From NCBI RefSeq assembly GCF_036323395.1, contig NZ_AP028907.1:629588-661587 (forward strand): a stretch of 32,000 nt of DNA, read 5' to 3'. Both the position numbers and the translations under genes were made by a program. Positions 346 to 26,082 of the stretch are shown in pieces (position 1 is the stretch's first letter; the number at the start of each line of letters is the position of its first letter). Source of the stretch: Pyrodictium abyssi. GTDB lineage: Archaea; Thermoproteota; Thermoprotei_A; Sulfolobales; Pyrodictiaceae. The notes beneath the pieces were generated by a model. That model was not told the DNA's origin. It saw only the letters and a list, made by a program, of their open reading frames with translations, and did no database searches.

Positions 346-541
346 TCTGCGTTGCAGCCCGGGGCTCCCCCGGGAAGCCTCGCCTACGGCCTCCATGCAT
401 GGGTAGAGGTGCTTGCTCTCTAGACGCCACGCCCTCGCGGGCTGCGTCTCGCCGCCTCTACCCCTCCCTCTGCACTGACGCACCTAGGAACATCGTCCCT
501 AGAAGGTCTGGGCTCGGGTCAGGAGACGGTCTCGGAGAGGT

Positions 542-1429: not shown

Positions 1430-1456
1430 AGCCAGGGAAGGAGGGGAGGTGGAGCC

Positions 1457-2488: not shown

Positions 2489-3203
2489 GAGGCTTCTCGT
2501 CGTGGAGGGCGTGTCTAAGAGGTTTGGCGGCCTCACAGCGCTAGAAGGCGTCAGCTTCACTATGCGGGAGGGCGAGAGGCTGGGACTCATAGGGCCTAAC
2601 GGCGCCGGGAAGACCACGCTGTTCAACTGCATCACCGGCGTCTACAGGCCGGACCGGGGGAGGATAGTCTTCAGGGGCACCGACATCACCGGCTGGCCCC
2701 CACACAGGATAACAAGGATCGGGATAGCCAGAACATTCCAGATAGTGAGGCCGCTAGCCAAGATGACCGTGCTCGACAACGTGGCTGTGGGGGCACTGCT
2801 CCACACCAGCGACGTCGACGAGGCCAGGAGAAAGGCGCTAGAGGTACTAGAGCTGGTAGGCCTCTACGAGAAGCGTCACGTCCCCGCGCAGTCGCTCACG
2901 CTGATCGAGAAGAAGAGGCTCGAGGTGGCCCGCGCGCTCGCTACCGAGCCTAGGCTGCTACTCCTCGACGAGATCGCAGCGGGGCTCAGGCCGGCCGAGG
3001 TGGACCGGCTCCTGGACATGCTGTTCGAGGTTAACAGGAGAGGCGTCTCCATGATAATGGTGGAGCACGTCATGAGGGCTGTGATGAACTTCGCTGAGAG
3101 GATCATAGTGCTCCAGTACGGGAGGAAGATAGCCGAGGGCAAGCCCGAGGAGGTCGCCAGGGACCCACGCGTAATAGACGCGTACCTGGGCACGGAGGAG
3201 TAA
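2481..3203 (+). CDS. livG: ABC transporter ATP-binding protein (LivG family)
   Basis: Walker A GPNGAGKTT, Walker B LLLLDEIAAGL, C-terminal ...DPRVIDAYLG. The GTG start overlaps the livM stop by 8 nt (GTGGCTGA), consistent with translational coupling. Confidence 0.9.
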   Translation: MAERLLVVEGVSKRFGGLTALEGVSFTMREGERLGLIGPNGAGKTTLFNCITGVYRPDRGRIVFRGTDITGWPPHRITRIGIARTFQIVRPLAKMTVLDNVAVGALLHTSDVDEARRKALEVLELVGLYEKRHVPAQSLTLIEKKRLEVARALATEPRLLLLDEIAAGLRPAEVDRLLDMLFEVNRRGVSMIMVEHVMRAVMNFAERIIVLQYGRKIAEGKPEEVARDPRVIDAYLGTEE

Positions 3204-3209
3204 GGGGCC

Positions 3210-3929
3210 ATGGCCGGGCGGCTCCTGTCGGTCGAGAACATAGACGTCTACTACGGCGAGTTCCAGGCATTGTTCGGCGTCAGCCTAGAGGTTTACGAGG
3301 GCGAGGTCGTAGCCCTAGTCGGCGCCAACGGCGCCGGGAAGACCACGACTCTGAAGACCATATCGGGGCTGCTTAGGCCGCGGCGCGGCAGAATAGTGTG
3401 GGAGGGCCAGGACATCACCAGTGTGCCCGCGTACCAGAGGGCCGAGCTCGGCATAGTCCATGTGCCCGAGGGCCGGGGGATCTTCCCCTACCTCACCGTG
3501 TACGAGAACCTGGTCGTGGCGGCGTACACCAGGAGGGCGCGGGAGAGGTTTGAGGAGAGCCTGGAGATGGTCTACGAGCTGTTCCCCAGGCTCCGGGAGA
3601 GGAAGCGGCAGCTAGCAGGAACCATGAGCGGCGGAGAGCAGCAAATGCTAGCCATAGCACGGGCGCTGATTCAGAGGCCCAGGCTCCTCATGCTCGACGA
3701 GCCCAGCCTCGGCCTCGCCCCTAAGCTGGCCCGGGAGGTAGTCTACCTGGCCCGGAGGCTCCGCGACGAGTACGGGATAACCGTGCTCCTCGTGGAGCAG
3801 AACGTGAGGCTCTCCCTCAAGGTCGCCGACCGGGCCTACGTCCTCGAGACCGGGCGGGTCGTCCGAGAGGGCCCGGCAGGGGAGCTCGAGAAGGACCCCG
3901 AGATACGCCGTGCGTACCTCGGGATCTAG
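3210..3929 (+). CDS. livF: ABC transporter ATP-binding protein (LivF family)
   Basis: Walker A GANGAGKTT, signature MSGGEQQMLAIARAL, Walker B LLMLDEPSLGL, C-terminal ...IRRAYLGI. Confidence 0.9.
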   Translation: MAGRLLSVENIDVYYGEFQALFGVSLEVYEGEVVALVGANGAGKTTTLKTISGLLRPRRGRIVWEGQDITSVPAYQRAELGIVHVPEGRGIFPYLTVYENLVVAAYTRRARERFEESLEMVYELFPRLRERKRQLAGTMSGGEQQMLAIARALIQRPRLLMLDEPSLGLAPKLAREVVYLARRLRDEYGITVLLVEQNVRLSLKVADRAYVLETGRVVREGPAGELEKDPEIRRAYLGI

Positions 3930-3951
3930 TCTGCATGGAGCCAGGGCAAGG

Positions 3952-6012
3952 GTGATCTCCGGGTTGAGGAGGATAGGGATAGACATAGGCGGTACCTTCA
4001 CGGACCTCGTGGCCTTCGACGACGAGACCGGCGAGCTGAGGAGCCTCAAGGTCCTGACGACGCCCCGGGAGCCCTGGCGGGGCTTCATGGAGGCTCTGCG
4101 GCAGCTAGGCTGGGACCTGGAGGGCGTCGAGGTAGTTATCCACGCGTCGACGCTTGGCACCAACCTGTTCCTAGGCCAGGTGGGGCTCGAGCCGCCGCCA
4201 GCAGTGCTAGTGGCCAACAAGGGGTTCCGCGACCTGCTGGAGATAGGGAGGCAGAACCGCCCGGAGCTATACAACCTGTTCTTCCAGCGCCCCCGGCCGC
4301 TCATCCCCCGGTCGCGGCGGCTCACCGTGGCCGGGAGGATCGGGCCCAGGGGAGAGGAGCTCGAGCCCCTCGACGAGGGGGCTGTCCGGCGGATAGCCCG
4401 GGAGTGGTGCAGCCGGGCCAAGGTATTCGTGGTAGTGTTCCTCCATAGCTACGCTAACCCGAGCCACGAGAAGCGCGCCAAGGAGATCATCGAGGAGGAG
4501 TGCCCCGGGGCCCTAGTGGTGGCGAGCCACGAGGTGGACCCGCAGCCGAAGGAGTACGAGCGCACCAGCACAGCAGTGGTCAACGCCCTGCTGAAGCCCG
4601 TGCTCTCCACCTACCTCTCCAGGGTCGCCGGGGAGCTCCGCTCAGCAGGATTCCGGGGCAAGCTCCTAGTCATGCAGAGTAGCGGCGGCGTAGCCGGAGT
4701 AGAGCAGGCCGTAGAGAGGCCAGCAGCCTTCATCGAGAGCGGCCCGGCGGCCGGCGCCGTGGCCGTAGCGTACTTCTCCAAGCTGATGGGTGTAGAGTAC
4801 GCCCTCGGCTTCGACATGGGCGGCACCACTGCTAAGGCCTCCGCTGTGGTGAACGGCGAGCCCCTAGTGGTCCCAGAGTACGAGGTGGGCGGCCGGGTCC
4901 ACATGGGGAGGCTGCTACGGGGCTCCGGGTACCCTGTCCGCTACCCCTACATAGACATAGCCGAGGTCAGCGCCGGTGGCGGCACGATAGCCTGGGTGGA
5001 CGCTGGGGGCGCGCTGCGGGTCGGCCCGGTGAGCGCTGGCGCCGACCCGGGCCCAGCCTGCTACGGCCGCGGAGGCCGCGAGCCCACGGTGACGGATGCG
5101 CAGCTCGTGCTGGGCAGGCTGCCCGAGGCCCTGGCCGGCGGGAGGATAAGGCTCCGCCGGGACCTCGCCCTGGAGGCCCTGGCGGGGCTAGCCGAGAAGC
5201 TGGGCATGGGGGTCGAGGAGGCCGCTGCCTCGATAATAAGGATAGCTAACACAGTCATGTCCAGGGCGCTGCGGCTCGTGACCATAGAGAGGGGGTACGA
5301 CCCCCGGCTCTTCGCGCTCTACGCCTACGGCGGCGCGGGGCCCCTCCACGCGGTGGAGCTCGCGGACGAGCTGGGAGCCAGGGAGGTCGTTGTCCCACCG
5401 CTGCCCGGCGTGTTCTCGGCGTTAGGCCTGCTCGTCACGGACTACCGCCACGACTTCCACGCCGCTGTTGTGCGGAGGGCCGACGAGCTAAGCGACGAGG
5501 AGCTCGAGAAGGTCTTCGCAGGGATGGCCGAGAAGGCCCTGGCGATGCTCCGCGACGAGGGCGTAGCCCCGGACCAGGCCCGGCTGGTACGCCGCCTAGA
5601 CATGAGGTATCAAGGGCAGGCGTACGAGCTGAGCGTGCCCTACCGCGGGAGCCTAGAGGAGGCCGTGAAGGAGTTCCACCGCCTACACGAGGCGAGGTAC
5701 GGGTTCAGCCTCCCCGACACCCCCGTGCAGGTGGTCAACGCGAGGCTCACAGCCTACGGAGTCGTGGCTAAGCCGAGGCTCCCCCAAGGGGAGCCGAGCC
5801 CCTACCGCCCGGAGCCCAGCGGCAGGAGGCGCGTCTACTTCGACGAGGCCGGGTGGACCATGACGCCGGTGTATAGGCGGGCCGAGCTACGCCCCGGCGC
5901 CGAGATCGAGGGCCCCGCAGTCATAGAGTCCGACGACAGCACCGTGCTCGTCCCCCCTGGCCATGTGGCCCGGGTAGACGGGCTCCACGCGGTCCACATA
6001 GAGAGGCTCTAG
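3952..6012 (+). CDS. hyuA: Hydantoinase/oxoprolinase family, A (beta) subunit (HyuA-like; N-methylhydantoinase A / 5-oxoprolinase / acetone carboxylase beta family)
   Basis: N-terminal IGIDIGGTFTDLV (ASKHA-type hydantoinase_A N-terminus) and a second ...GFDMGGTTAKAS motif. The ORF is open from GTG 3910, overlapping livF. GTG 3952 places the start about 8 codons before IGIDIGGT and is preferred, but the choice is uncertain. Confidence 0.85.
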   Translation: MISGLRRIGIDIGGTFTDLVAFDDETGELRSLKVLTTPREPWRGFMEALRQLGWDLEGVEVVIHASTLGTNLFLGQVGLEPPPAVLVANKGFRDLLEIGRQNRPELYNLFFQRPRPLIPRSRRLTVAGRIGPRGEELEPLDEGAVRRIAREWCSRAKVFVVVFLHSYANPSHEKRAKEIIEEECPGALVVASHEVDPQPKEYERTSTAVVNALLKPVLSTYLSRVAGELRSAGFRGKLLVMQSSGGVAGVEQAVERPAAFIESGPAAGAVAVAYFSKLMGVEYALGFDMGGTTAKASAVVNGEPLVVPEYEVGGRVHMGRLLRGSGYPVRYPYIDIAEVSAGGGTIAWVDAGGALRVGPVSAGADPGPACYGRGGREPTVTDAQLVLGRLPEALAGGRIRLRRDLALEALAGLAEKLGMGVEEAAASIIRIANTVMSRALRLVTIERGYDPRLFALYAYGGAGPLHAVELADELGAREVVVPPLPGVFSALGLLVTDYRHDFHAAVVRRADELSDEELEKVFAGMAEKALAMLRDEGVAPDQARLVRRLDMRYQGQAYELSVPYRGSLEEAVKEFHRLHEARYGFSLPDTPVQVVNARLTAYGVVAKPRLPQGEPSPYRPEPSGRRRVYFDEAGWTMTPVYRRAELRPGAEIEGPAVIESDDSTVLVPPGHVARVDGLHAVHIERL

Positions 6013-9436: not shown

Positions 9437-9745
9437 CTATAGCCGGAGCCTCCGCTTCAGAGCCTCCAGCGCCTCCCCGTGCTCCCGGCTCCACCCACCC
9501 TTCCTCTCCTTCTCGCCCAGCTTCTCGGCTATCCTGTCCCGCTCGAGGGCCGGCAGCGCCCCGGTTAGCGCCCGCCACGCCTGGAGCGCCTTACCCGCAG
9601 CACTCCTCGTAAAGCCCCGGCCGAGGAACCTCAGCGCCAGCAAAGCCTCCAACAGCGCCTCCAGGACACGGGCAGAAGCATAGCCCACTAGGCTCCTCTC
9701 CGGCTTGGGAAGAGGACGCTCCAAGAACTCCACGCCTACAGCCAT
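9437..9745 (-). CDS. PaREP1-family (HEPN-like) small protein, 102 aa
   Basis: Internal ATG at 9745 of the artefactual 355-aa ORF. The motif FTRSAAGKALQAWRALTGAL matches the PaREP1 core (N-A-A-G-K-A-F-Q-A-W-K-A). A TATA-like box lies about 37 nt upstream. Confidence 0.55.
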   Translation of the reverse strand: MAVGVEFLERPLPKPERSLVGYASARVLEALLEALLALRFLGRGFTRSAAGKALQAWRALTGALPALERDRIAEKLGEKERKGGWSREHGEALEALKRRLRL

Positions 9746-9776
9746 CCCGCACCCCTGGTATAGGCGGCGCCACAAC

Positions 9777-9786
9777 GCTATATACC
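9777..9786 (-). promoter_or_regulatory. TATA-like box for the PaREP1-like/pgi transcription unit
   Basis: The + strand gctatatacc reads GGTATATAGC on the - strand, 32-41 nt upstream of the ATG at 9745. Confidence 0.4.
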
Positions 9787-9910
9787 GTAGCCCCGGCCCC
9801 GCTGCACGCGCCAAGGCACCGGGAGTGAGACGGCACCGGACTGTGGAGGTACAGCAGAAGGGGGCACACCGTGGACCGTCAGAGGCCAGAGATAGGGGAG
9901 GGCTCTGCGG

Positions 9911-9987
9911 TGGTGGGCCCGGGGGGATTCGAACCCCCGACCTCCCGGTTATCAGCCGGGCGCTCCGCCGGGCTGAGCTACGGGCCC
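9911..9987 (-). tRNA. tRNA-Ile(GAU): tRNA-Ile, anticodon GAU, CCA encoded
   Basis: Manual fold of the reverse complement: acceptor GGGCCCG/CGGGCCC, D stem GCTC/GAGC, anticodon stem CCCGG/CCGGG with loop CT-GAT-AA, variable AGGTC, T arm GGGGG-TTCGAAT-CCCCC, discriminator A, CCA. Total 77 nt. Confidence 0.93.
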
Positions 9988-10016
9988 GCCCCGAGAGGCA
10001 AGGGACAATGCCCCGG

Positions 10017-10028
10017 GGATATTTCAGC
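10017..10028 (-). promoter_or_regulatory. TATA-like box for tRNA-Ile
   Basis: The + strand ggatatttcagc reads GCTGAAATATCC on the - strand, centred about 35 nt upstream of the tRNA 5' end. Confidence 0.35.
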
Positions 10029-10177
10029 ACTACGCCCAGGACCCAGAGGTCAGCCACAGCTCCAACACCGCCCAAAGGGGGACCCGCAGGAGCCGCAGGC
10101 ATGGTGGGCCGCGGGTGGAGGAGGAGAGGCCAAAAGAGCCAGAGTAGAGGGGCGGGGGCGCGCCCTCGCCCTCCCGA

Positions 10178-11275
10178 GCTCGTCCACTCTACGCTGAAGC
10201 CCACCACTACCAGCACAGTGTCGAGGAGCACGCCCTCCCCGGCCTCGTAGTACGCGGTCACACCGTAGTAGGCCGCTGTAGCGTTCTCGAAGCGCCACGC
10301 CTCCTCATCCACGGTTATAGTGTCCTCTGGCTGCAGCCAGCCACTAGGCTTGTCAAAGCCCACCCGGGCAACCTCCTGCCCAAGCACCAGGACATCGTAG
10401 CCGGCCACTATGGCCTCGTTGACGTACAATGTAGCCGAAGGTGGATGGAATATGTAGGCCAGCGTTATGTTAAAGAGCCAGTTGCCGTCCTCGTCCATGA
10501 ACACTAGTGTTACAGTGACGTTAGTCGCGCGGGTTATCCCGTCGCTTATCGTATTCCGCTATAATCCAGGACTGGGTATGGTTCAGAAAGCTATCATACA
10601 CATAGATGTCAGCAGGCCTATCGTCGTAGCCTACTACTAGAGATAGTTATTGTCACCGGTGTGAGCGTTGGACAGCTTTACCGTAATGCCGAATCATACC
10701 ACCACTCGACAAGCCTGTCAGAGACGTTCTTGTACACGTACTCTTGTCCGTTACTCTCGTTGCGTATAACAAGGTATATCTTTGCAACCTTGTTTACGAG
10801 TTCTTGCACTATACTGTAAGCTGTATAACCTAGCTCTGGCAGGCCCTGCGACTCCACACTACTTCTTATCGCATTCTCAATCCCTTCAATCTTAGTTTCA
10901 TTGCGGATTTGGTATACAGGCTGATTATTAGGGAACTCCCCAGACTTTTTCACTCGTGTATGTGCCTTTGCCCTCGAATTCTGCTGCTTCTCTTATTATT
11001 AGTATCAGGTAGCGGAAGTACTGTTTTAGCTCTTCGGCGTTCTCTAGCTTCACCTTAAACCACGGGTTCACAGAGACCATACCCTGGGCGTCGGAGGCAG
11101 CGCCTATGGCTAGCGGTTTCACGACCTCAAAGTGCACCGGCTCTTCCCGGGCACCCGCTAGGCCAAGGGCATAGAAGACACCAGGTGTGCCCGTGAGCAC
11201 TGCTGCAAAGCCTGCTAGCAGGGCGAGGGCGGCAGCCGAGGCCATAACGCCAGCAACGGGCGGGAGCATGACCAA
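10178..11275 (-). pseudogene. Decayed paralogue of the secreted Can-like family, closest to the 389-aa member
   Basis: Homology to 24913-26082 runs through at least four frames. These are 11275-10928 (signal peptide to ...YFRYLILIIREA), 10953-10678 (...VEWWYDS), about 10650-10550 (...YDSFLNHTQSWIIAEY) and 10560-10178 (...ISDGITRATNVTVTLVFMDEDGNW...YYEAGEGVLLD...VEWTS). The family's terminal TS-TAG reads TS-TCG here, so the frame runs on through the tRNA. Confidence 0.8.
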
Positions 11276-11367
11276 TACGCGCCACAGCCCCGAGGCTCGG
11301 TGGAGCGGGCAGAAACCGAGCGCAGATGTTCTGCACCAAGTGACGCATTAAATGGGCGAGGAGATGT

Positions 11368-11378
11368 GGGAAAAACCG
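11368..11378 (-). terminator. Oligo-T terminator candidate for the 174-aa gene
   Basis: A5 at 11371-11375 on the + strand gives T5 on the coding strand, 49 nt past the stop at 11424. Confidence 0.4.
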
Positions 11379-11423
11379 TGTTAGCGGGGTTATGGGGCTC
11401 TCATATGGGCCTGGCTATGGGTG

Positions 11424-11948
11424 TTAGCTGACGCTTAGCACCTGGAAGTTGAGGATCACTGGTAGGCTGTCGAACAGCATACCCTCCTTGGCCTCGTAGT
11501 AGGCTTCAACCTTTAGCTGTATCTTGTTAGTGCTACTGTAGTCGTCGTTGTCTAGTATTATGACTGCGCTGGGCTTCTTGAGGCTTAGCACAGCCTTGGT
11601 CTCCTCAACAGTACTAGAGGCATTGCTTGTGAGTACTAGCTGTAGGTACTTGAAGTATGGCCTTAGCTGGGCAGCATTGGCTAGAGTCACCTTTAGCTTT
11701 ACTACGTTCACGTCAGTATAGTTTATTATTTTTACGTAGCCCATATCCTTGTAGCCCTGTGCGCCAGCAGCAGGAGCTATGGTGTTGTCTAGGTGGCTCT
11801 CTACGTCTATTGGCTCTTGCACTGCTTGTGCTGTGCCGGTGGCGTAGAAGCTGTTGAGCGGGCTCTGGGTGGTGGCGAAGCCAGCTAGCAGGGCGAGGGC
11901 GGCAGCCGAGGCGATGATACCCGCTATAGCTAGGGTTGTGTACCTCAT
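11424..11948 (-). CDS. Secreted filament-subunit candidate, Can-like family (174 aa; cannula CanA/B/C-like by architecture)
   Basis: Signal-peptide-like MRYTTLAIAGIIASAAALALLAGFATT, then SPLNSFYATGTA, APAAGAQG, LANAAQLRPYFKYLQL, and a C-terminal YYEAKEGMLFDSLPVILNFQVLSVS-stop. Sequons NYT and NAS are present. The start at ATG 11948 is chosen by alignment with the paralogue; the ORF is also open to ATG 11960. Confidence 0.8.
   Translation of the reverse strand: MRYTTLAIAGIIASAAALALLAGFATTQSPLNSFYATGTAQAVQEPIDVESHLDNTIAPAAGAQGYKDMGYVKIINYTDVNVVKLKVTLANAAQLRPYFKYLQLVLTSNASSTVEETKAVLSLKKPSAVIILDNDDYSSTNKIQLKVEAYYEAKEGMLFDSLPVILNFQVLSVS
11830..11948. repeat. Copy 1 of a 119-bp near-identical segment covering the 5' end of Can-like genes
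   Basis: 116/119 identical to 22053-22171. Differences are g/a at position 6, a/t at position 53, and ATG versus GTG at the start codon. Confidence 0.95.
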
Positions 11949-12012
11949 GGCTCGAGGCACCTTCCCGTCTATGTTTTTGTTCTGTCAAGTGTTATGTAGA
12001 AGTTGTTTCTGG

Positions 12013-12022
12013 CTTATAATAT
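12013..12022 (-). promoter_or_regulatory. TATA-like box upstream of the 174-aa Can-like gene
   Basis: The + strand cttataatat reads ATATTATAAG on the - strand, 65-74 nt upstream of ATG 11948. A similar element sits 55-64 nt upstream of the paralogue at 22171. Confidence 0.3.
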
Positions 12023-12104
12023 CTGTGGTCTTCGGGTATAGCCCTATAGTTCACAGTTGTTGAAGAACAGGGTGCACGGGTTGTTGCCGCGGTTTTGAGC
12101 GGCG

Positions 12105-13301
12105 TTAGGGCCTGCAGTAGCCTGGGTCTGTGGAGTAGTCTAGTATCACCTTGAAGCGATAGGGTAGGCTCGTTGTACACGTGTCTATCCTTATCTCCGC
12201 TGTGAGCGGGACTGCGGGGTAGCTGTGGCCGCCGAGCTGTATTGCGACGCAGTCTCCCTCGTCTATTGTTATCTCGGCCTCGGGGTCGGAGGGCGTCAGC
12301 TCGCCCACCATGTTGTGGTTCGCGTCGTATAGTCTTACCTGGATGCCGCATACAGCGTGGTGGGGCTGTACGCCCTCTAGCTCTATCTCGAGGTCTATGG
12401 GCGTGTCTCTGCCGTCTAGGCAGCCGCAGTCCCGGTCGAGGATCACGTACAGCGTGTAGTTGGCTGCTACTATGCACCCGGATGGGCCGCAGCTTGTCTC
12501 CGAGCAGTCTGGGTAGATGCGCACATGCACATGTGTCCTGCCGTAGAGTATCCAGGCCTCGGGGCACTGCTGGGTGCTCGTGGTCGTCGTGCTTGTTGTG
12601 GTGCTCGTCTTTGTGGCCGTGCTGGTCGTAGTGGTGTTTACCGGCGGTGCTGTGACGGTTACCGTCGTGGTTACTGTCACCGTGGCTGTGCCGTTGGGCT
12701 GTGTCGTGGTTGTCGTGTAGGTGTACGTGTAGGTCTGGTTGTAGCTGGCTGGGCCTAGGTAGATTGTTCCCGTCTCCTGGTCGGCGACCGTCACTAGGAG
12801 TGGCACTGCTACTGTGGCGCTAGTGTTGCAGTCCCGTGGCTCGTAGTAGATCCTCGCCGCGAGGACCGCGTAGCGTGTTGTGCCGTTCTCTGCCCAGCTG
12901 CCTGCGTCGAGGACTATTGCTGCCGAGGGGTCCTGGAGCGACATGGTTGCGAGCAGCTCGTTGTTCACCGTGTTGAATACCTCGATGTGGAGCGCCCGGA
13001 GCCTGCCTGCCAGCATGTCCAGGTTGGCTATGGATAGTACTAGTCTCGCAACGTCGACTCCCGCTGCAGGCTCTATCCGGAGCCACTCGCCTACTTCTAG
13101 GCTCTGGGGGCCACATGCCCCGGGGGCTATCTGGAGGATAGGGGTCTCCAGTACCGATACCTTTACCGGCTTGTAGGGGGCGCTCACCTCGCCGGTGGCG
13201 TAGAACCCTGTGAGAGGGCTAACCGTGGTAGCGAAGACTGCCGCTAGGGCCAGGGCTAGCGTAGAGGCCAGTAGAGCTGCGAGGCCGAGACGGCGGTCCA
13301 T
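12105..13301 (-). CDS. Can-like family protein fused to a Thr-rich linker and a Cys-rich C-terminal domain (398 aa)
   Basis: MDRRLGLAALLASTLALALAAVFATTVSPLTGFYATGEV aligns with the family leader. SIANLDMLAGRLRALHIEV, SLQDPSAAIVLD and ARIYYEPRD align with family motifs. A Thr-rich linker (12570-12740) and a 10-Cys domain (12108-12564) follow. The start at ATG 13301 is chosen by alignment; the ORF is open to 13394. Confidence 0.75.
   Translation of the reverse strand: MDRRLGLAALLASTLALALAAVFATTVSPLTGFYATGEVSAPYKPVKVSVLETPILQIAPGACGPQSLEVGEWLRIEPAAGVDVARLVLSIANLDMLAGRLRALHIEVFNTVNNELLATMSLQDPSAAIVLDAGSWAENGTTRYAVLAARIYYEPRDCNTSATVAVPLLVTVADQETGTIYLGPASYNQTYTYTYTTTTTQPNGTATVTVTTTVTVTAPPVNTTTTSTATKTSTTTSTTTTSTQQCPEAWILYGRTHVHVRIYPDCSETSCGPSGCIVAANYTLYVILDRDCGCLDGRDTPIDLEIELEGVQPHHAVCGIQVRLYDANHNMVGELTPSDPEAEITIDEGDCVAIQLGGHSYPAVPLTAEIRIDTCTTSLPYRFKVILDYSTDPGYCRP
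12570..12740 (-). repeat. Low-complexity Thr-rich linker coding region
   Basis: Encodes YNQTYTYTYTTTTTQPNGTATVTVTTTVTVTAPPVNTTTTSTATKTSTTTSTTTTST. The ACN-codon periodicity is visible as gtgg/gtcg repeats on the + strand. Confidence 0.9.
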
Positions 13302-13403
13302 GGACGTGAGCACCCTCGCGGAGCGCCTAGGGGCCACGGCCCCCTCTGGGGCAGGGTTTGCTCTACCCCGGGGGCCCCGTGCTGGGCTCCACACAGCCAG
13401 ATA

Positions 13404-15454: not shown

Positions 15455-15895
15455 CTAGCCTGTGCTGCTGTCTTGCGTGTCCTCTAGGAAGGGCTTGCAG
15501 AGTGTCAGGTTCTCGGCTATGGTCTGGTTTAGGCTGTAGAGGGTCTTGCAGAGGTTCTCTAGCTCTTCGCCGCTCATGGTTACCTTGACGCCGTTTATCT
15601 CTAGGACTACGTTGCCGTCGCCGCCGCGGTAGAGGTTTATGGCGATGTTGTTGGAGCGGTTTACCAGCTCCACTATATCCTGGTGTATTTCGCGGACTAG
15701 CGTCTCGTTGAGAGTGCCCCTGGAGAGGGCAGTGGCGACCTTGGTGAGGTCCTGGCCCACCTGGTTAACGACAGTTGTGGCGTACTCGGCTATAGCCGTT
15801 ACCATGGCCATCGCCACGACGAAGGTCAGCAGGCCCGACAGCATAGCCTCCTTTAGCACCCGGTTCACCGTCTCTAGATACCCACCGTAAGGCAT
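15455..15895 (-). CDS. Small N-terminally anchored protein with conserved Cys pair, paralogue 1 (146 aa)
   Basis: TM helix LSGLLTFVVAMAMVTAIAEYA. The C-terminal ...EELENLCKTLYSLNQTIAENLTLCKPFLED aligns with 16817-17197, sharing C-x16-C and an NLT sequon. Confidence 0.65.
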   Translation of the reverse strand: MPYGGYLETVNRVLKEAMLSGLLTFVVAMAMVTAIAEYATTVVNQVGQDLTKVATALSRGTLNETLVREIHQDIVELVNRSNNIAINLYRGGDGNVVLEINGVKVTMSGEELENLCKTLYSLNQTIAENLTLCKPFLEDTQDSSTG

Positions 15896-16801: not shown

Positions 16802-16816
16802 CGGGGGCCACCAGGG

Positions 16817-17197
16817 CTAGCCGGCCAGCCCCTCGGACGTTATAACGTCTCTGCAGGGGGTCAGGTTGAGCGCGAGCCCGGGGTCGACGGCGTAGAGGGA
16901 CCAGCAGAAGAGCCTCAGCTGGGTCTCGTTGAGCACGAGCCTCTCGCCGCCGACGTAGACCGGGGTGCCGTTCAGCGCCTCCACGGCGCCCCGCAGGGCC
17001 GCCTCCTCCAAGTCGGCGAGGTCGCGCTGCAGCCTATCGAGGAGGCTCCAATCGGGCTCCCCCTCGGCCACGGCCTCGACCACGGCCATGAGGTCGGGCA
17101 GGACGCGGTCCACCAGGATACCCGCCACAAGCAGCGACGCGGCCAGGAGGGCTAGCGCGGGGGCGGCAGCCAGGGCTCCGCTGGCCACAGGGAGCAC
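16817..17197 (-). CDS. Small N-terminally anchored protein with conserved Cys pair, paralogue 2 (126 aa)
   Basis: Hydrophobic N-terminus ALAAAPALALLAASLLVAGILV. The C-terminal ...TQLRLFCWSLYAVDPGLALNLTPCRDVITS aligns with 15455-15895. Confidence 0.6.
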   Translation of the reverse strand: MLPVASGALAAAPALALLAASLLVAGILVDRVLPDLMAVVEAVAEGEPDWSLLDRLQRDLADLEEAALRGAVEALNGTPVYVGGERLVLNETQLRLFCWSLYAVDPGLALNLTPCRDVITSEGLAG

Positions 17198-17260
17198 CGG
17201 GTTATCTGGAGACGCTCCGGGGTGTATATTAGTGACGCCCGGGGACCGGCTAGCCGCGCG

Positions 17261-17428
17261 CTACGCCCATATAACCGCGGGGCCCGGGGGAGGCCTGGGG
17301 CCGGGCCTCCCCGGCCTCCTGCGCCCGCCGCGCCTGGTTCCGCGGAGCCGCTGGATCGCCGCCACTATGGCTGCGAGCGCTACGAGGCTCAGGAGGAGGG
17401 CTAGCAGCACCCGGTTGCCGGCGAGCCT
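17261..17428 (-). other. Out-of-frame (+1) membrane anchor plus basic tail downstream of the 1260-aa gene
   Basis: Translation by hand in the +1 frame gives ...APAPGLAERLAGNRVLLALLLSLVALAAIVAAIQRLRGTRRGGRRRPGRPGPRPPPGPAVIWA-stop (TAG at 17261-17263). This frame is open from about 17513. Confidence 0.6.
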
Positions 17429-17429
17429 C

Positions 17430-20400
17430 TCAGCCAGCCCCGGCGCGGGGGCCCGCGTAGTCGTCGCCGGCGGCCGGGGGGGCGGCTGTGGTGGCTGTGG
17501 CGTTCGCGGGGGTCACGTTGCCCGGTGCCGTGACGTTGGCTGGGGCTAGCTGGGCGCCCGGCCCCGCGGCTAGTACGCCGCTAGCACGGGCCAGTGTGAA
17601 GGACTCTCGGGCGCCGTCGGGCACGGCGCGCAGTACTGCCTCGTAGCTGGCCGTCGCGTTGCCCCTCAGCTGTATCTTCACCCTCATGGAGGCTATGTCG
17701 CCGGGCCGTAGCGCGTCAACCCTCATGACCGCCATGCTGGTGGTGTAGCTGCCCGGCTCGGCGTCGAGCACCTCTACCCCGCTGGGGAACTTTACGCTGA
17801 CAACCACGTTCCTGAGGTCTATCGAGTCCAGGTTCGCGGCGCTGACCTCTACTATGGCGCGGTCCCGGTACCTCTCCACCTCCTTGACCTCGAGGGCCAC
17901 GTGGGGCACCTTCACCCTCACCGGGACCGTGGCCAGCGTGTTGCCGTCGAGCCTGAGCACTATGTAGACCGTTGTCTCGCTCCCCAGCGGCGCGCCGGGG
18001 GAGACGTGTAGCGTAGCCCACCTGGTGGTGAACTCTCCGGGCTCAAGGTCCGCCCGCGTCGCCGGCAGGAAGAGCCTGGCTATCGAGTCGTTGCCGTTGA
18101 CCGGGACTATCTCCGCGCCCTCTATCCTCATACCAGAGGCCACGTCTATCCTCACGTCCACCTCGCTCCCGGGCGGCGCCGCGACGTAGCCCGGCGTCAC
18201 AGTGACCTCCACTGTGCGGCGGAGGAGCTCTAGCACTGGTATCCTGGCTACACGGTACTCCTTGATCAGGTACTGGCCGGTCTCGTCGTAGACCAGGAGC
18301 CTTGCGTCAAGCGTGTCCAGGGGCTCCAGCTTGACGGTGTCGAGGTTTACGCTTATGTCGAGCGTGCGGTGGCTCCGAGCCGGGAGCGCCACCGTCTCGG
18401 CGTAGTCGTATATCGTGCACGCCTTCACGTCGACGCAGTCGCCCTGCCCCTTGACGAGCACAAGCCGCGCTAGGAACACGGCGTCGCGGTCCTCTGGGTT
18501 GTAGAAGGACAAGCTTATGGTAAGCCCTCTCCTCGCTATGTCTACCTCCACGTCCTCTAGCCGGGGCTCCACCATGACGGAGCGTAGCTCCACGCCACTG
18601 GTGCTTGTTGCTATAACTTTGCCGTTCGGGTCGAGCACGTGTATGCTCATAGTGTAGACGCCGGGGTAGGCGGTCGGCGGCACCGGTATGTTGACCACGA
18701 AGCTAGCGCTGCCGCCCAGGGGCACCAGCTCCTCCCCGGACTCGGCCTCGCCCAGACCCTCTATCGAGACCCTGACCCTGAGCCGGGCGTCAGTGTTACC
18801 CGTGTTAGCCACCTTAACCTCTACGCGGAAGCTCTTACCCACCACCGGGAGGTCTAGCACACGCACCTCCTCCACGGTGGCAGAGACCACTGGCTCCACT
18901 GTCAGCAGGTTGTGGAGGCTCCAGGAGGCGTAGGGCATCCCCGCTATGTAGAGGACTGCGCGGGCGTCGTAGCTCCCTGCCGCGGCGTCGCCCGGGACCT
19001 GTATGGGGACCTGGACCAGGTTAATGCCGGGGAAGAGTGGCTCCTCAACGCTGTAGCTCCGGCCGAGCAGCTGTACCTCCAGCCGGCTCTGGACTGAGCC
19101 CTCGCCGTCCAGCCGGAGCTTCACCGAGACCAGGGCCTGGCCGCCGGGCTTCACGCTCCCCGGCGACGCGCTGTAGTCCTCCAGGGATATGCTGTACGAG
19201 ACTACCTCTAGCGCGGCCTCGGCGCGGGAGGCCTCGTAGAGGTCGTCGCCCCTGAACTCCACGGCGAGGCTGTGCCTGCCCACGCCGAGCCACGAGGTGT
19301 CGAACTCAACCACTGCCACGCCGTCTCGGCCGGTGCGGGCGCTGCCCACGAGCTTCCCGTCTACGTAGAAGCTCAGGGTGCGGCCCACGAGCGGGCCCCC
19401 GGAGACCCCGTCAACCAGCCTGGCCTCGACGTGGGCGAGGCTGCCGCGCGACACCACGAAGCTCTGAGCCTCTATCTTGCTCGGCCTCTTCAGCACCTCG
19501 ACTGTCTTGCTCTTGACGCCGGTTAGCCCCGTGTCGTCCACGACTGTGAGCGTGACGTTGTAGACACCGGGCTTCTCGAACACGTGGGTAACTATCGCGC
19601 CCTCGGCCACCGTGCCGTCGCCGAACTCCCAGCGGTACCCAGTGATGTTGCCGTCGGGGTCGTAGGAGAGGAGCCCGTAGAACGTGACGTTGACGCCCCA
19701 GTAGGGCTGCCGCGGCGAGAACCAGAACCCAGCGACCGGGGGCCTGCCCTCGACGCACCAGACCGGGCGCGAATCCAGCCAAGGCTCGTAGTACTGCCTG
19801 GGGTTAGGCCGCCCCTCAAGCCACGGCATCACTATAGGGCTGCCCTTGCCCTCCGGGTTGCCCGTAGCCCGGGGGCCCGAGGGGTCACCCCACCAGTTGT
19901 GCCCCGCGTAGACGTAGCCCTCCTCAACCTTCAGCCCGTACTCGGCGCCCTCCAGGCAGCTGTAGCTCACCACCGCGGTAGAGTCCACAACACTCTTCAC
20001 GTAGACCGCCTGGGGGCCCGAGACCCGGGAGTAGAGCACCTCTAGCCTCGCCCTGCCACCCACGCCGCCCTTCTCGCCGTCAATAATCAGGCTCTCCAGC
20101 TGGCACCTATAGATCCTCATCACGGTGGACTGGCCGTAGAGGCCCCAGTCCTCGCGCACCCAGTTATCCGCAATGCTCTCGCCCCGGACCAGAACCCTCC
20201 CCATAACGGTGTTGCTCGCAACAAGACTCGACTGGTCCAGGCCGCGGCCCGAGGAGGTGCCGTTGTAGAGCCCATAGCCGTGGATAGTGAGGCCCTCCAG
20301 CGTGGAGTCTGTGATGCTCATCCACGAGGATAGCAGCCCCTCAGGCCCCTCTACCACTACGCTGCCCAGCCTCACACGCTCCAGCACCAGGCTACTACGG

Positions 20401-21212
20401 AACAGCGCTGCGCCCTCCCCCGCGTAGCTCCGGTCTACCACCACGGAGAGCCCGGAGAACACGGAGTCGCTGATGCTTATCCGGGACTCGTAGACACCAT
20501 ACATGACCGCCGGCACTAGCTTGTAGCTCGTGACGGTGACAGTCGTGTTGCCGGTAGTGATGTTGTAGCGGATGGGCACCTTCACCTGCAGCCCGGTGGC
20601 GTAGGAGTGCACCACGAACTCCCCCGTGGCGTTGACGCGGCTCAAAGTTATCTCGGACTGGTACACCGCGCTAGTCTCGTTGCCCAGGCCCAGCGACTCC
20701 ACCCTAAAGTCGCCCACAATGGTCACGTTGTCCAGCGCCACCGTGGAGTTGTAGACGCTCCGGTAGGCCGCCTTGAAGGACAGCCCGCCACGTATAACAG
20801 AGTCCGTAAACGTCACGTTGGACTCCGTGAGCCCTGTAAACTCCAGGCCATCCTCGACAACAACGTTCTTGAACACCAGGACCGAGCCCGTCACAACAAG
20901 CGTGCCGCGCCCCACCAGTGTTACCGGGCTCCCCGGCTTACCCTCGGCAAGGATCACGCCACGGTCAACCGTGACCGTGACGCCGGGCGCGAATATCAGG
21001 ACAACACCGTCCTCTATCCGGACCTCGGCCTTAATCCGGATATCCCTCGTGATTATGTACGGGCTCCCCTCACGAGTCAACACAGTATTGACTATGATAT
21101 CGCGGTCGATAGGCGTAGGGCTCGCCTCAGCCCCCGCCGCGCCCCACACCCAGCCCGCCAGAGACACAAGGTACAGTACAAGGAGTATGGACACCAGTAG
21201 CCGCCTATACAA
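17430..21212 (-). CDS. Giant secreted surface protein: signal peptide, right-handed beta-helix region, PKD domain, multiple Ig/CARDB-like domains (1260 aa as encoded)
   Basis: Signal-like MYRRLLVSILLVLYLVSLAGWVWGAAGA. Repetitive beta-helix-type segments span aa 35-445 and end in HNWWGDPSGP. The PKD motif YRWEFGDGT...HVFEKPGVYNVTLTVVDDTG spans about 19494-19742. CARDB-like FRVEVKVANTGNTDA is present, with many N-x-S/T sequons and a C-terminal NVT/NAT/Thr-Pro tract. Confidence 0.85.
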   Translation of the reverse strand: MYRRLLVSILLVLYLVSLAGWVWGAAGAEASPTPIDRDIIVNTVLTREGSPYIITRDIRIKAEVRIEDGVVLIFAPGVTVTVDRGVILAEGKPGSPVTLVGRGTLVVTGSVLVFKNVVVEDGLEFTGLTESNVTFTDSVIRGGLSFKAAYRSVYNSTVALDNVTIVGDFRVESLGLGNETSAVYQSEITLSRVNATGEFVVHSYATGLQVKVPIRYNITTGNTTVTVTSYKLVPAVMYGVYESRISISDSVFSGLSVVVDRSYAGEGAALFRSSLVLERVRLGSVVVEGPEGLLSSWMSITDSTLEGLTIHGYGLYNGTSSGRGLDQSSLVASNTVMGRVLVRGESIADNWVREDWGLYGQSTVMRIYRCQLESLIIDGEKGGVGGRARLEVLYSRVSGPQAVYVKSVVDSTAVVSYSCLEGAEYGLKVEEGYVYAGHNWWGDPSGPRATGNPEGKGSPIVMPWLEGRPNPRQYYEPWLDSRPVWCVEGRPPVAGFWFSPRQPYWGVNVTFYGLLSYDPDGNITGYRWEFGDGTVAEGAIVTHVFEKPGVYNVTLTVVDDTGLTGVKSKTVEVLKRPSKIEAQSFVVSRGSLAHVEARLVDGVSGGPLVGRTLSFYVDGKLVGSARTGRDGVAVVEFDTSWLGVGRHSLAVEFRGDDLYEASRAEAALEVVSYSISLEDYSASPGSVKPGGQALVSVKLRLDGEGSVQSRLEVQLLGRSYSVEEPLFPGINLVQVPIQVPGDAAAGSYDARAVLYIAGMPYASWSLHNLLTVEPVVSATVEEVRVLDLPVVGKSFRVEVKVANTGNTDARLRVRVSIEGLGEAESGEELVPLGGSASFVVNIPVPPTAYPGVYTMSIHVLDPNGKVIATSTSGVELRSVMVEPRLEDVEVDIARRGLTISLSFYNPEDRDAVFLARLVLVKGQGDCVDVKACTIYDYAETVALPARSHRTLDISVNLDTVKLEPLDTLDARLLVYDETGQYLIKEYRVARIPVLELLRRTVEVTVTPGYVAAPPGSEVDVRIDVASGMRIEGAEIVPVNGNDSIARLFLPATRADLEPGEFTTRWATLHVSPGAPLGSETTVYIVLRLDGNTLATVPVRVKVPHVALEVKEVERYRDRAIVEVSAANLDSIDLRNVVVSVKFPSGVEVLDAEPGSYTTSMAVMRVDALRPGDIASMRVKIQLRGNATASYEAVLRAVPDGARESFTLARASGVLAAGPGAQLAPANVTAPGNVTPANATATTAAPPAAGDDYAGPRAGAG

Positions 21213-21478: not shown

Positions 21479-22171
21479 TTAGCCTACCTGCAGTACCTGG
21501 AAGTTGAGTATTACTGGTAGGCTGTCGAATAGCATGCCCTCCCTAGCCTCATAGAAGGCCTTGACCGTTAGTACAGCGAATGTAGCGTCATTGCCCATGC
21601 CATTGAATACGCCACTCTTAGTTATCTGCCAGCTGCCAGTTGCGTTGCCTATTTCTATCTTATCGCTGGGTGAACCTGGTACCCAGAATGTTACGTTTGC
21701 TGGTATGCTTGCAGCTGTCTCGTTCAGCTTAGCAATATTGAACAAGTCTTCAGCGTCAAGTATTATTACGGCTTTAGGCTTCTGTAGGGAGAGGACAGCT
21801 TTGATCTCTGAGTAGTTGCCTATAGCGGACTCGTTTGTGTTGAAGGCGCTTGTTATCTGTAGCTGTAGGTACTTGAAGTATGGCCTTAGCTGTGCGGCAT
21901 TGGCTATTTTTACTAGGAGCTTTACGTCGTTTACGTCGGCGCGTACTGGCACTAGCACAAAGCCCATGTCCTCGCTGCCCTGGGCGCCGGCGGCGGGGGC
22001 TATGTTGGTGTTGAGCTTGCTCACTACGTCTATTGGCTCGCTTACCGCCTCTGCTGTACCGGTGGCGTAGAAGCTGTTGAGCGGGCTCTGGGTGGTGGCG
22101 AAGCCTGCTAGCAGGGCGAGGGCGGCAGCCGAGGCGATGATACCCGCTATAGCTAGGGTTGTGTACCTCAC
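21479..22171 (-). CDS. Secreted filament-subunit candidate, Can-like family (230 aa)
   Basis: GTG start. The first 40 aa are identical to the 174-aa paralogue. Motifs APAAGAQG, IANAAQLRPYFKYLQL and a C-terminal FYEAREGMLFDSLPVILNFQVLQVG-stop are present. Five sequons: NES, NYS, NET, NVT, NAT. Confidence 0.85.
   Translation of the reverse strand: MRYTTLAIAGIIASAAALALLAGFATTQSPLNSFYATGTAEAVSEPIDVVSKLNTNIAPAAGAQGSEDMGFVLVPVRADVNDVKLLVKIANAAQLRPYFKYLQLQITSAFNTNESAIGNYSEIKAVLSLQKPKAVIILDAEDLFNIAKLNETAASIPANVTFWVPGSPSDKIEIGNATGSWQITKSGVFNGMGNDATFAVLTVKAFYEAREGMLFDSLPVILNFQVLQVG
22053..22171. repeat. Copy 2 of the 119-bp near-identical 5' gene segment
   Basis: See 11830-11948. Confidence 0.95.
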
Positions 22172-24912: not shown

Positions 24913-26082
24913 CTAGCTGGTCTCCAGCACCTCTGCGTTGATGACTAGTGGTAGGCTGTCGAAGAGCACGCCCTCCAAGCCCTCGTAGAACACGGTGACA
25001 CCGTAGACAGCGGCGCGGCCGCCGTCAACCTTCCAGCTGTCCTCGTCAACCACCAGAGTATCCTCGGGCTGCCACCAGCCACTAGCCCGGTCAAAGCCTA
25101 AGGTGGCGCGAATATTGCCAAGCACAAGCACCGGATAGAGGCTACTCATGTACTCCTGAGCCTCAACTCTATCATAGACACCGTTTGTGTCGGTATCATA
25201 CCATGTCACATTCCACATCATGGTGAAGAGCACATTGCCTTCTTTATCAATGAACTCCAGTATCAATGTATAGTTGGTAGCTGCTATATCAGGCCATGTC
25301 CCTCCATCACTAACCTCGGCTATATATAAGCTTTCGTTCTCATAACTATCCCAGAAGAAGACACTAGGGTTATTATCGTAGAATATCCTTATGCTATAGT
25401 TTCCGTTGGGGTGTACAGGCTTCACTGAGAACCATAAACCCCGCTCAACAATATCATCAAGGCTTAAGTCTTCTACTAGTACTCGCCGACCGGGATTAGT
25501 TTCTGTGTTATTTATTAACGTCAGGTTAACATGGGCAACTTCTCCTAACAGCCTCCATGCAAATGCCGTAACGTTGACTCCTTCAGAAGCGTAGTTTGCT
25601 GAAACGTCGTAGATTTTCCCCGCCAATGTTGCGCTGTCTAGCGCATATCTGCCAAGGTTGTCAGGAGCACTTTCACTATCATTATCACTAGTCTCGATTC
25701 TCGGCGGGAGTTCCTCAAAGGGCGTTGGCCCTTTCCACTCCTCGTGTGCTTCCCGTATCTGTATGATGAGGTATCTGTAGTACTGTGCTAGCTGCTTGAT
25801 GTTCTCTAGCTCTAGGCGTATCTTTGTGGTGTTTACGTCGTTGTACCGTATGAGCTTGAGCCAGCTTGTCTCCTCTAGCTTGCCCTGTGCCCCCGCAGCA
25901 GGGCTTATGACGAGGTCCTTGAGCACCTGTAGGTCCACCGGCTCGCTAGTCGCCGCGCCGCCGCCGAGCCCGAGGAAGCCTGCTAGAGGGCTCCCCGTGG
26001 TGGCGAAGCCGGTTAGGAGGGCGAGGGCGGCAGCCGAGGCCACAACAGCCAGGAGAGCGAGAGTCTCGCGGCGGAGGCTCAC
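24913..26082 (-). CDS. Secreted Can-like family protein with large central insert (389 aa)
   Basis: GTG start. Leader MSLRRETLALLAVVASAAALALLTGFATTGSPLAGF, then SPAAGAQG, ELENIKQLAQYYRYLIIQIREA, and a C-terminal VFYEGLEGVLFDSLPLVINAEVLETS-stop. The central insert of about 230 aa is AT-rich and rich in N-x-S/T sequons. Confidence 0.85.
   Translation of the reverse strand: MSLRRETLALLAVVASAAALALLTGFATTGSPLAGFLGLGGGAATSEPVDLQVLKDLVISPAAGAQGKLEETSWLKLIRYNDVNTTKIRLELENIKQLAQYYRYLIIQIREAHEEWKGPTPFEELPPRIETSDNDSESAPDNLGRYALDSATLAGKIYDVSANYASEGVNVTAFAWRLLGEVAHVNLTLINNTETNPGRRVLVEDLSLDDIVERGLWFSVKPVHPNGNYSIRIFYDNNPSVFFWDSYENESLYIAEVSDGGTWPDIAATNYTLILEFIDKEGNVLFTMMWNVTWYDTDTNGVYDRVEAQEYMSSLYPVLVLGNIRATLGFDRASGWWQPEDTLVVDEDSWKVDGGRAAVYGVTVFYEGLEGVLFDSLPLVINAEVLETS

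Follow-up and report, generated by a model that had tools for sequence, protein, structure and literature searches.

The 32,000-nucleotide stretch of Pyrodictium abyssi analysed here (hereafter the window; source genome strain AV2, AP028907) contains a giant open reading frame with the features of an exported surface protein. The frame closes just before a segment that resembles a membrane anchor and that lies in the +1 frame beyond a run of seven identical bases. This arrangement raises the question of whether the anchor belongs to the gene and, if so, what separates the two frames: a mutation, an error in the consensus sequence, or a device that yields anchored and released forms of one protein. 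On the evidence set out below, the extra base looks like an ordinary one-base mutation or a sequencing error and not like a designed switch.

A surface-protein gene that closes before its anchor

The giant ORF (17430..21212, minus strand), which encodes 1260 aa from a TTG start, was characterized by accession matching, Pfam search and an AlphaFold model. It is recorded as PABY_06980/BES81131.1 (1254 aa) and as WP_338251964.1 (1260 aa), both corresponding to the truncated frame. The product comprises a signal peptide, a beta-helix of about 410 aa, a PKD domain (aa 492-571), Ig-like/DUF11-like domains and a Thr/Pro/Ala stalk. Pfam matches were obtained to PKD_4, PKD, Big_3_5 and DUF11, and the structural model reached a pLDDT of 85, with weak matches for the beta-helix. 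The N-terminus, MYRRLLVSILLVLYLVSLAGWVWGAAGAEA, was read as a secretion signal by eye, and the protein carries 16 NxS/T sequons. A secretion signal, extracellular domains and N-glycosylation sequons are all features of TM-anchored archaeal surface glycoproteins, in which a C-terminal TM helix follows a Thr/Pro-rich stalk, as in the precursor of the halobacterial S-layer glycoprotein.

The last feature of that class, a stalk leading in one frame into a TM helix and a basic tail, is missing from the gene as sequenced. The main frame ends in ...TAAPPAAGDDYAGPRAGAG and is closed by the TGA at 17430-17432, exactly where an earlier note on this DNA had placed the stop, with no anchor in frame. The complete succession is present in four of four orthologs, and in the window once a single C is removed. 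The orthologs and the repaired protein thus share with the TM-anchored archaeal glycoproteins a signal peptide, sequons, a stalk, a single TM helix and a basic tail, but they differ in lacking PGF-CTERM or any other archaeosortase-type signal, none of which was detected by an NCBIfam scan (E up to 1) of the repaired C-terminus and the four orthologs. The body of the gene has a dN/dS of 0.19 relative to its closest ortholog, of 91% identity, and contains no other lesion; the ratio indicates purifying selection.

The displaced anchor in the +1 frame

Translation and alignment to the four ortholog C-termini delimited an open +1 segment at 17264..17512 (minus strand), which reads PPRTPQPPQPPPRPPATTTRAPAPGLAERLAGNRVLLALLLSLVALAAIVAAIQRLRGTRRGGRRRPGRPGPRPPPGPAVIWA up to the TAG at 17261-17263. 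The earlier note had described a Pro/Thr spacer, one TM helix and a strongly basic tail here, and this description holds; the frame is open only from 17512, a base later on the coding strand than proposed, since 17513-17515 is itself a stop. Within this segment, only the part 3' of the C run is in the ancestral frame, and it holds the remainder of the stalk, the TM helix and the basic tail. On the 5' side of the run, the true frame is frame 0.

The predicted TM helix, VLLALLLSLVALAAIVAAI (17354..17410, minus strand), has a mean Kyte-Doolittle hydropathy of 3.06 and begins at the GTG codon with which a 49-codon ORF formally starts. It is followed by an Arg-rich tail, QRLRGTRRGGRRRPGRPGPRPPPGPAVIWA (17264..17353, minus strand), predicted to be cytoplasmic, the end of which resembles the ortholog tail ...RRGGRLSARRTGRRQPPAVFWI; the extreme C-termini share 13/23 identities (E 72), which is not significant alone. 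A BLASTP comparison of just the +1 segment with the orthologs likewise gave no significant match, the TM helix reaching E 0.039 against the 68% ortholog (P0003). As pairwise BLASTP gave no significance, homology of the anchor is argued from its position, its architecture and a uniqueness test, and not from an E-value. For that test, the window was scanned for 19 uncharged hydrophobic residues with a mean Kyte-Doolittle value of at least 2.4, followed within 15 residues by at least six Arg/Lys and no acidic residue. The motif occurred once in all six frames (64,000 positions), at this site. The anchor ORF downstream of the run is intact, without secondary decay.

A single C between the two frames

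The run itself, C7 on the coding strand and G7 on the plus strand (17476..17482; GCC-CCC-CCG), was confirmed and is the most likely site of a one-base insertion from C6 to C7. No other homopolymer in the window reaches 7 nt, although dinucleotide shuffles predict 20.1 +/- 5.9 C/G heptamers; long C/G runs are otherwise avoided about 20-fold. The probability that one randomly placed run would fall within the 80-nt interval in which an indel could join the frames (17433-17512) is about 0.0025. Codon register relative to the closest ortholog follows frame 0 upstream of the run and the +1 frame downstream of it. Amino acid composition points the same way: after the run, the +1 reading scores +13.9 bits as stalk and the frame-0 reading -6.0 bits. 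The frame-0 read-out between run and stop, AAGDDYAGPRAGAG (17433..17475, minus strand), is out-of-frame stalk DNA with a composition that is not stalk-like. As the earlier note had anticipated, deleting one C fuses the frames; the continuous product of 1316 aa compares with 1313 aa in the closest ortholog and aligns with all four other lineages. The proposal that the gene has its own anchor in the +1 segment, split off at the homopolymer, is therefore supported by four contiguous lineages out of four, by codon register and by stalk composition.

Other placements of the lesion were considered. On a GC3 frame plot, the switch of frame falls somewhere from about 17430 to 17490, and the plot is too coarse to locate it exactly. 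An indel in the C5 or the G4 run, both closer to the stop, is improbable, because the frame-0 reading between C7 and the stop is not stalk-like. An out-of-frame recombination junction at 17541/17542 was rejected, since frame 0 retains sequons and the ortholog codon register to about 17483. Position 17541/17542 is the left edge of a lineage-specific segment of 740 bp, described below.

Orthologs and the question of an evolved switch

The repaired gene belongs to a small family of exported surface glycoproteins in Pyrodictiaceae, whose ectodomain (beta-helix, PKD and Ig-like domains) is known from five lineages only. The four other lineages, at 91% (P0002), 68% (P0003), 47% (P0004) and 38% (P0005) identity, each carry a single continuous ORF through the stalk, TM helix and basic tail, which is the outcome of the ortholog alignment that the earlier note had recommended. 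The 91% ortholog is intact in three independent samples: DNA of one (L001), aligned across the site, has no homopolymer at the matching position, and the other two (L002, L003) encode the same intact 1313-aa protein. The ortholog of P. occultum is intact as well. A profile search revealed no further family members and no natural anchor-less ortholog, and a family-alignment scan of genome-contig and metagenome-contig collections found no relatives. In the same contig collections, a DNA pattern across the run that allowed C6 to C9 had no match, and the protein collection contained no AV2-derived sequence besides that from AP028907. The repaired 158-aa C-terminus matched nothing in the large protein collection, not even itself, and low-complexity words probably swamped its candidates.

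These comparisons bear directly on whether the run could be a contingency locus, that is, a selected, hypermutable poly-C tract that reversibly gives an anchored (C6 or C9) or a released (C7) surface protein. The tract does lie inside the ORF, and a one-base change does alter the product, C6 restoring the anchor. Such a change would toggle the anchor alone and leave the whole ectodomain untouched, the C7 is the sole exception in a sequence that shuns long C/G runs, and surface proteins are the usual class subject to phase variation (PMC3711429; PMC2831843). Against this, the tract is not conserved at the site: the three 91% orthologs lack it, and it is not evident in the other, contiguous lineages. 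Genes with established phase variation also have longer G/C tracts than these 7 nt. To our knowledge, simple-repeat phase variation has no precedent in hyperthermophilic archaea, and a literature search turned up none.

Comparison with bacterial systems sharpens the contrast. In Listeria monocytogenes, some natural 3' alleles of inlA have lost the C-terminal cell-wall anchor, and the protein is secreted. As in P. abyssi, a one-base homopolymer slip in this surface-protein gene changes the product, homopolymeric tracts serving as mutational on/off sites (PMC2831843); however, the tract described there, a 5' poly(A), eliminates the protein, whereas the poly(C) of P. abyssi lies 3' of the ectodomain and removes only the TM anchor, in a hyperthermophilic archaeon known here from one genome sequence. 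The poly-G/C contingency loci of Campylobacter, Neisseria and Helicobacter (PMC3711429, PMC3315296) likewise combine a G/C run in a surface-protein gene with a one-base switch. Their tracts, however, are usually at least 8 nt long, conserved and strain-polymorphic, and they turn the whole protein on or off, while the P. abyssi tract is missing in its nearest relatives. We consider a contingency locus unlikely. Comparably doubtful is a looser variant, in which the C7 is truly in the DNA and unstable at 98-110 degrees C, so that populations mix anchored (C6) and released (C7) forms, with leaky +1 slippage of tRNA-Pro possibly adding to the mixture. If it were true, such mixed populations would be the first homopolymer-driven switch of this kind described in a hyperthermophilic archaeon, and the mixture could affect attachment of cells to the cannula network.

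Recoding and the 49-codon reading frame

Two frames separated by one base could also be joined during expression. On a genuine C7, tRNA-Pro might slip by +1 on CCC-C, or RNA polymerase might slip, leaving a fraction of the protein anchored and most of it released. On the sequence CCC-CCG-G, a tRNA-Pro in the P site could re-pair perfectly in the +1 frame; in bacteria, CCC-C is known to be prone to +1 shifts of tRNA-Pro; and the +1 product would be identical to the C6 product. Two overlapping frames to be joined, with a P-site codon able to re-pair in the +1 frame, are also what is seen in programmed +1 frameshifting of bacterial prfB; the best-known archaeal case of recoding, fucA1 of Saccharolobus solfataricus, is a -1 frameshift. 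Programmed sites differ, however, in being conserved across orthologs and in having a slow A-site codon or a stimulator, and P. abyssi offers neither. The frameshift is found in none of the four other lineages. CCG, which occupies the A site, is a frequent codon (32% of those for Pro), and the downstream 121-nt fold (-53.8) is no more stable than the shuffled mean (-53.6; z -0.06), so that no slow codon or stimulatory RNA element was found. The slippery P-site codon in GCC-CCC-CCG-G is present yet unspecific: 15 genes of the window together contain 46 in-frame CCC-C, and it is not a special signal. Slippage by RNA polymerase, for its part, usually needs longer A/T runs (PMC3711429). Recoding is accordingly very improbable.

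The possibility that the 49-codon, GTG-initiated ORF (17261..17410) is an independent gene for a small membrane protein was raised in the earlier note. Its start codon lies 20 nt past the upstream stop, and it would encode a TM helix with a basic tail. However, it is called neither in GenBank nor in RefSeq nor in any other source, and its exact product is absent among 15 billion proteins that include both genome annotations. In every other lineage, the matching segment is the C-terminus of the large protein, and in the window the stalk-like reading in the same frame reaches upstream of the GTG. No promoter-like element is evident between stop and GTG, the nearest purine-rich stretch being GAGAGG, about 14 nt upstream. 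With its product nowhere on record and its counterpart elsewhere a protein C-terminus, the proposal finds no support, and we regard it as scarcely credible.

Taken together, these results make both an evolved switch and a separate peptide improbable: the orthologs have neither tract nor frameshift, neither a rare A-site codon nor an unusual RNA structure accompanies the run, and the 49-codon ORF is nowhere else a gene. Nothing positive was obtained for the slippage-based switch that had been suggested, its tract being only 7 nt long, absent from the closest orthologs and unaccompanied by any recoding signal.

A recent mutation or a consensus error

The explanation we favor, tentatively, is a genuine single-C insertion (C6 to C7) that is recent and unprogrammed and that leaves the product without its anchor. 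A C6 tract in the DNA for the stalk would have gained one C, probably by replication slippage, either within the AV2 lineage or in a culture-collection stock. Translation would then leave the ancestral frame, read 14 out-of-frame codons and stop at the TGA at 17430. The intact DNA for the anchor would stay in the +1 frame and go untranslated. With its signal peptide in place, the product would still be exported, minus the membrane anchor, and would be released or held by non-covalent contacts only. A recent date is suggested by the low dN/dS of a body free of other lesions and by the intact anchor ORF. As the C7 tract could also slip back to C6, rare revertants would be expected; they would be a side effect, not an evolved switch. 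The layout of the frames, the ancestral character of the anchor, the site of the lesion and the lack of recoding signals are shown by the data above, while we infer both that the extra C is present in the DNA, not just in the consensus, and what becomes of the truncated protein.

The main competitor is a consensus error: with C6 as the true sequence, an intact gene would encode a product of 1316 aa anchored like the orthologs, and only the database record and its annotation would be wrong. This is a substantial possibility, although we rate it below a real mutation. The frame is lost at the sole run of 7 nt or more in the 32 kb, and the DNA there is very GC-rich; local GC around the lesion is 71-87%, and the longest G/C homopolymer of such a stretch is a classic site of consensus indels. 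All orthologs are intact, and the absence of secondary decay in the downstream anchor ORF is just as compatible with an error. Antonov et al. 2013 (PMC3711429), who surveyed 1106 genomes, expected frameshifts confined to one genome, with homologues intact elsewhere, to be mostly sequencing errors. The cases of that GeneTack survey resemble ours in showing a frame transition in one genome, intact homologues elsewhere and an adjoining homopolymer of at least 7 nt; they differ in that the assignment is statistical and the genomes come from an earlier sequencing era. The platform used for AP028907 is not stated in PMC11284389 or PMC12153357; as its genome reference, PMC12518558 cites Miyazaki et al. 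2023 (PubMed 37843723).

The window itself speaks against a poor consensus. No other frameshift was detectable, and all Pfam-recognized genes have full-length domain matches, despite 89 C/G pentamers and 16 hexamers; the consensus thus appears generally clean, which argues against a noisy, long-read-only assembly. Real gene decay is also present nearby, in a cannula-like paralogue of the same cluster that carries several lesions inexplicable by homopolymer errors. Moreover, the 3' end of the gene lies within a lineage-specific 740-bp segment (16802..17541, minus strand) that spans the stalk end, the anchor, the intergenic region and an orphan ORF and that replaces 410 bp of the 91% relative. 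Its flanks retain 89-90% DNA identity to that relative, while the segment itself is unalignable by blastn and has evolved fast in the AV2 lineage. The orphan ORF (16817..17197, minus strand; 126 aa) encodes a protein with a hydrophobic segment at its N-terminus, and a TATA-like box is seen at about 17225-17232. The relatives lack this ORF, which is distantly paralogous to 15455..15895 and belongs to the context, outside the frameshifted gene. A clean window and nearby decay lower the prior probability of an error and do not decide the matter. Given the clean consensus, the lesion-bearing paralogue and the fast-evolving segment, we slightly prefer a real mutation.

Implications for the cannula cluster

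The giant gene sits in a cluster of CanX/CanA-like cannula genes. Directly upstream on the same strand is a gene for a CanA-like cannula protein (21479..22171, minus strand; PMC12518558), whose product, probably WP_338251966.1, shares 56% identity with a CanX-like 178-aa ORF. The putative S-layer protein of P. abyssi is the product of a different gene, PABY_19310 (PMC11284389). The order of a cannula-like gene followed by the giant gene recurs in a relative (L006) of only 38% identity, and on this ground the giant protein may be a cell-surface partner of the cannulae.

In GenBank and RefSeq alike, the truncated ORF appears as an ordinary protein with no mention of the anchor, and this omission from the annotation leads genome users to misjudge the topology of the protein. 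The locus illustrates cleanly how a homopolymer indel can take away a C-terminal anchor alone. AV2 is the strain behind the cannula cryoEM work and the glycoproteome, and if the type strain is truly without the anchor, conclusions on the attachment of cannulae to cells could be biased.

The displaced C-terminus of the giant gene

The giant surface-protein gene, located at 17430..21212 on the minus strand, encodes 1260 aa and ends in ...TAAPPAAGDDYAGPRAGAG-TGA. In the +1 frame, a stop at 17513-17515 is followed by sequence that stays open as far as the TAG at 17261-17263 and is translated as ...PPATTTRAPAPGLAERLAGNR-VLLALLLSLVALAAIVAAI-QRLRGTRRGGRRRPGRPGPRPPPGPAVIWA, with a C7 run of the coding strand at 17476-17482. 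An earlier note, made from the sequence alone, described these frames and the run accurately, apart from placing the opening of the +1 frame one base off; it lies at 17512. The frame is kept through the signal peptide and the entire ectodomain but lost for the TM helix and tail, and removing one C from the run yields a 1316-aa protein. The giant protein is 100% identical to PABY_06980 (BES81131.1, 1254 aa) and WP_338251964.1 (1260 aa) of Pyrodictium abyssi, the published record for this genome being that of strain AV2 (JCM 9394 / DSM 6158; AP028907). Both annotations list the truncated ORF as an ordinary "PKD domain-containing protein".

The C7 run is the only homopolymer of at least 7 nt in the 32 kb window. 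Long C/G runs are strongly depleted there: one C/G heptamer occurs where dinucleotide shuffles give 20.1 +/- 5.9, and hexamer matches number 18 where 64 would be expected, which agrees with the report that poly(C)/poly(G) tracts are generally under-represented (PMC2831843). Were this single run placed at random, it would land in the 80-nt stretch within which a net -1 indel joins the frames with p ~0.0025, and the six frames of the window contain a single TM-like stretch with a basic, acid-free tail behind it, at this site.

A search of 5.8 billion proteins found the family in five lineages only, all remaining matches being confined to the PKD domain. The four orthologs share 91% (P0002, 1313 aa), 68% (CF15_07055 of P. 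occultum, 1290 aa), 47% (P0004, 1331 aa) and 38% identity (P0005, 1299 aa) with the giant protein. The earlier note had asked whether orthologs are contiguous through a TM anchor, and in all four a Thr/Pro/Ala stalk leads unbroken into one hydrophobic helix and an Arg/Lys-rich tail; the intact 91% ortholog is present in contigs of three separate sequencing runs. The C-terminus of the repaired 1316-aa protein aligns with those of the orthologs, ending in PAVIWA versus PAVFWI in P0002. Pairwise BLASTP of the +1 segment (17264..17512) by itself was not significant, the segment being short and of low complexity. Judged by its position, architecture and uniqueness, this segment is the ancestral anchor of the giant protein. 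No archaeosortase-type signal was detected in the C-terminus. It is very improbable that the 49-codon ORF encodes an independent peptide, as the earlier note had also proposed: it stands as a separate gene in no lineage and is called by no source in the protein collection, including both annotations. Negatives from two further approaches carry little weight, as the word-indexed protein search with the low-complexity C-terminus missed the query's own parent protein, and scans of the genome and metagenome contig collections returned none of P. abyssi, P. occultum and the JGI contig L005.

The first ~410 aa of the protein are predicted to form a right-handed parallel beta-helix (pLDDT 85), whose only matches are tailspikes, the adhesin PfbA and polysaccharide lyases/epimerases, weak and at fold-class level with TM-scores of 0.2-0.3. 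A PKD domain and Ig-like/DUF11-like domains follow, and 16 N-glycosylation sequons are present.

Site and nature of the frame change

Codon register, stalk composition and a GC3 frame plot make the C7 run the best candidate for the site of the frame change. When the DNA is aligned with that of the 91% ortholog, the codons match up in frame 0 before the run (AAC-GCC-AC versus AAC-GCT-AC, at a NAT sequon) and in the +1 frame immediately after it (CCG-GCG in both), with a 2-nt length difference at the run itself. Against the amino-acid composition of the stalks of the four orthologs, the post-run +1 reading (RPPATTTRAPAPGLAE) scores +13.9 bits and the frame-0 reading (PAAGDDYAGPRAGAG) -6.0 bits; the GC3 plot is consistent with this location, though coarse. 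The implied change would be the gain of one C by a C6 run or, as the more complicated alternative, the loss of three-to-one fewer Cs, namely two, from a C9 run.

We place a real one-base change in the DNA at just short of an even chance. Every Pfam-recognised gene in the window, including two BPD_transp_2 permeases, two ABC ATPases, hydantoinase A and B, a PGI-like protein, DUF2204, AMP-binding and VWA, has its domains matched end to end despite 89 C/G pentamers and 16 hexamers, so homopolymer errors are not a general feature of this consensus. Moreover, a long cannula-like paralogue (~10232-11275) carries several frame changes, none at long homopolymers, indicating that surface-structure genes of this cluster do undergo real decay. 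A 740-bp stretch (16802..17541) that holds the stalk end, anchor, intergenic region and one additional ORF fails to align with the 91% relative, which has 410 bp in its place between flanks of 89-90% DNA identity; the 3' end of the giant gene is thus in flux. Given purifying selection on the gene body (dN/dS 0.19), any real lesion would be recent. A consensus error at the run nevertheless retains a sizeable, if lesser, probability, as every other G/C homopolymer of this very GC-rich stretch is shorter than the run, the anchor coding is undamaged, and such single-genome cases were expected to be mainly errors (PMC3711429).

An evolved switch or recoding, taken together, is unlikely. The frameshift is present in none of the orthologs, and in the closest ones the site lacks a homopolymer, leaving the slippage switch suggested earlier without support. 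CCG, the A-site codon, is frequently used (32% of Pro codons), CCC-C occurs in frame 46 times in 15 genes, and RNA around the run folds no better than shuffles (z -0.06). Orthologs, codon use and RNA folding thus argue against programmed frameshifting and offer nothing in favour of a conserved contingency locus.

The right edge of the 740-bp segment coincides exactly with the DUF2204 start codon (16801). Its extra 126-aa ORF (16817..17197, minus strand) has no relatives but itself among 1.8 billion representative proteins; it is a weak paralogue (25% identity, 115 aa) of a conserved 146-aa ORF two genes on (15455..15895, minus strand), has a TATA-like box ~30 nt upstream and happens to lie in the same frame as the displaced anchor.

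Genomic context and significance

PMC12518558 describes clusters of cannula genes, of which the window is one. Its cannula-like paralogues (10232..13394, 21479..22171, 24913..26082) comprise 178, 230, 429 and 389 aa. The 178-aa ORF (11424..11960) fits CanX in its mature length of 149 aa and its NYT sequon at mature residue 51, coinciding with the glycosylated Asn51 reported for CanX (PMC12518558). The 178-aa and 230-aa proteins share a near-identical long N-terminal stretch (~39 identical residues from MRYTTL...), signal peptide included. The broken fifth paralogue (10232..11275, minus strand) aligns to the 389-aa paralogue in two pieces in a common frame, 10928..11275 (aa 13-125) and 10232..10549 (aa 257-389), separated by ~380 nt with stops in that frame and two other frames open; it resembles a pseudogene that carries several lesions. 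A 355-aa ORF (9437..10504, minus strand), which extends from the C-terminal piece of this gene through a tRNA-Ile(GAT) gene (9911..9987, minus strand) into a PaREP1-domain gene, is an artefact of the high GC content.

The giant gene's immediate upstream neighbour, ORF 21479..22171 on the same strand, is probably the CanA-like WP_338251966.1, whose accession comes directly after that of the giant gene. In L006, the contig of the relative with 38% identity, a CanX-like ORF (3..278) again directly precedes the giant-gene ortholog (411..4310). AAA_22 ATPase and Peptidase_S26 genes lie nearby in the window, L006 and another relative's contig, L002; in L004 the S26 gene occurs alone. This conserved order and these recurring neighbours make a functional link to cannulae plausible. 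The family searches yielded no member from P. delaneyi, a species reported to have no cannula-like genes (PMC12518558); together with the gene order kept at 38% identity, this hints at a cannula-related role.

The event itself is ordinary: a single-base indel in a homopolymer cuts off a C-terminal anchor. Its detection in the earlier note was correct and useful. The case merits an annotation note and, since cannula work uses AV2 as its reference strain, a check of the C7 site. Were the change real, the product would be exported and then released or held only through non-covalent contacts, and the C7 tract would slip back to C6 at some rate, giving rare anchored revertants.
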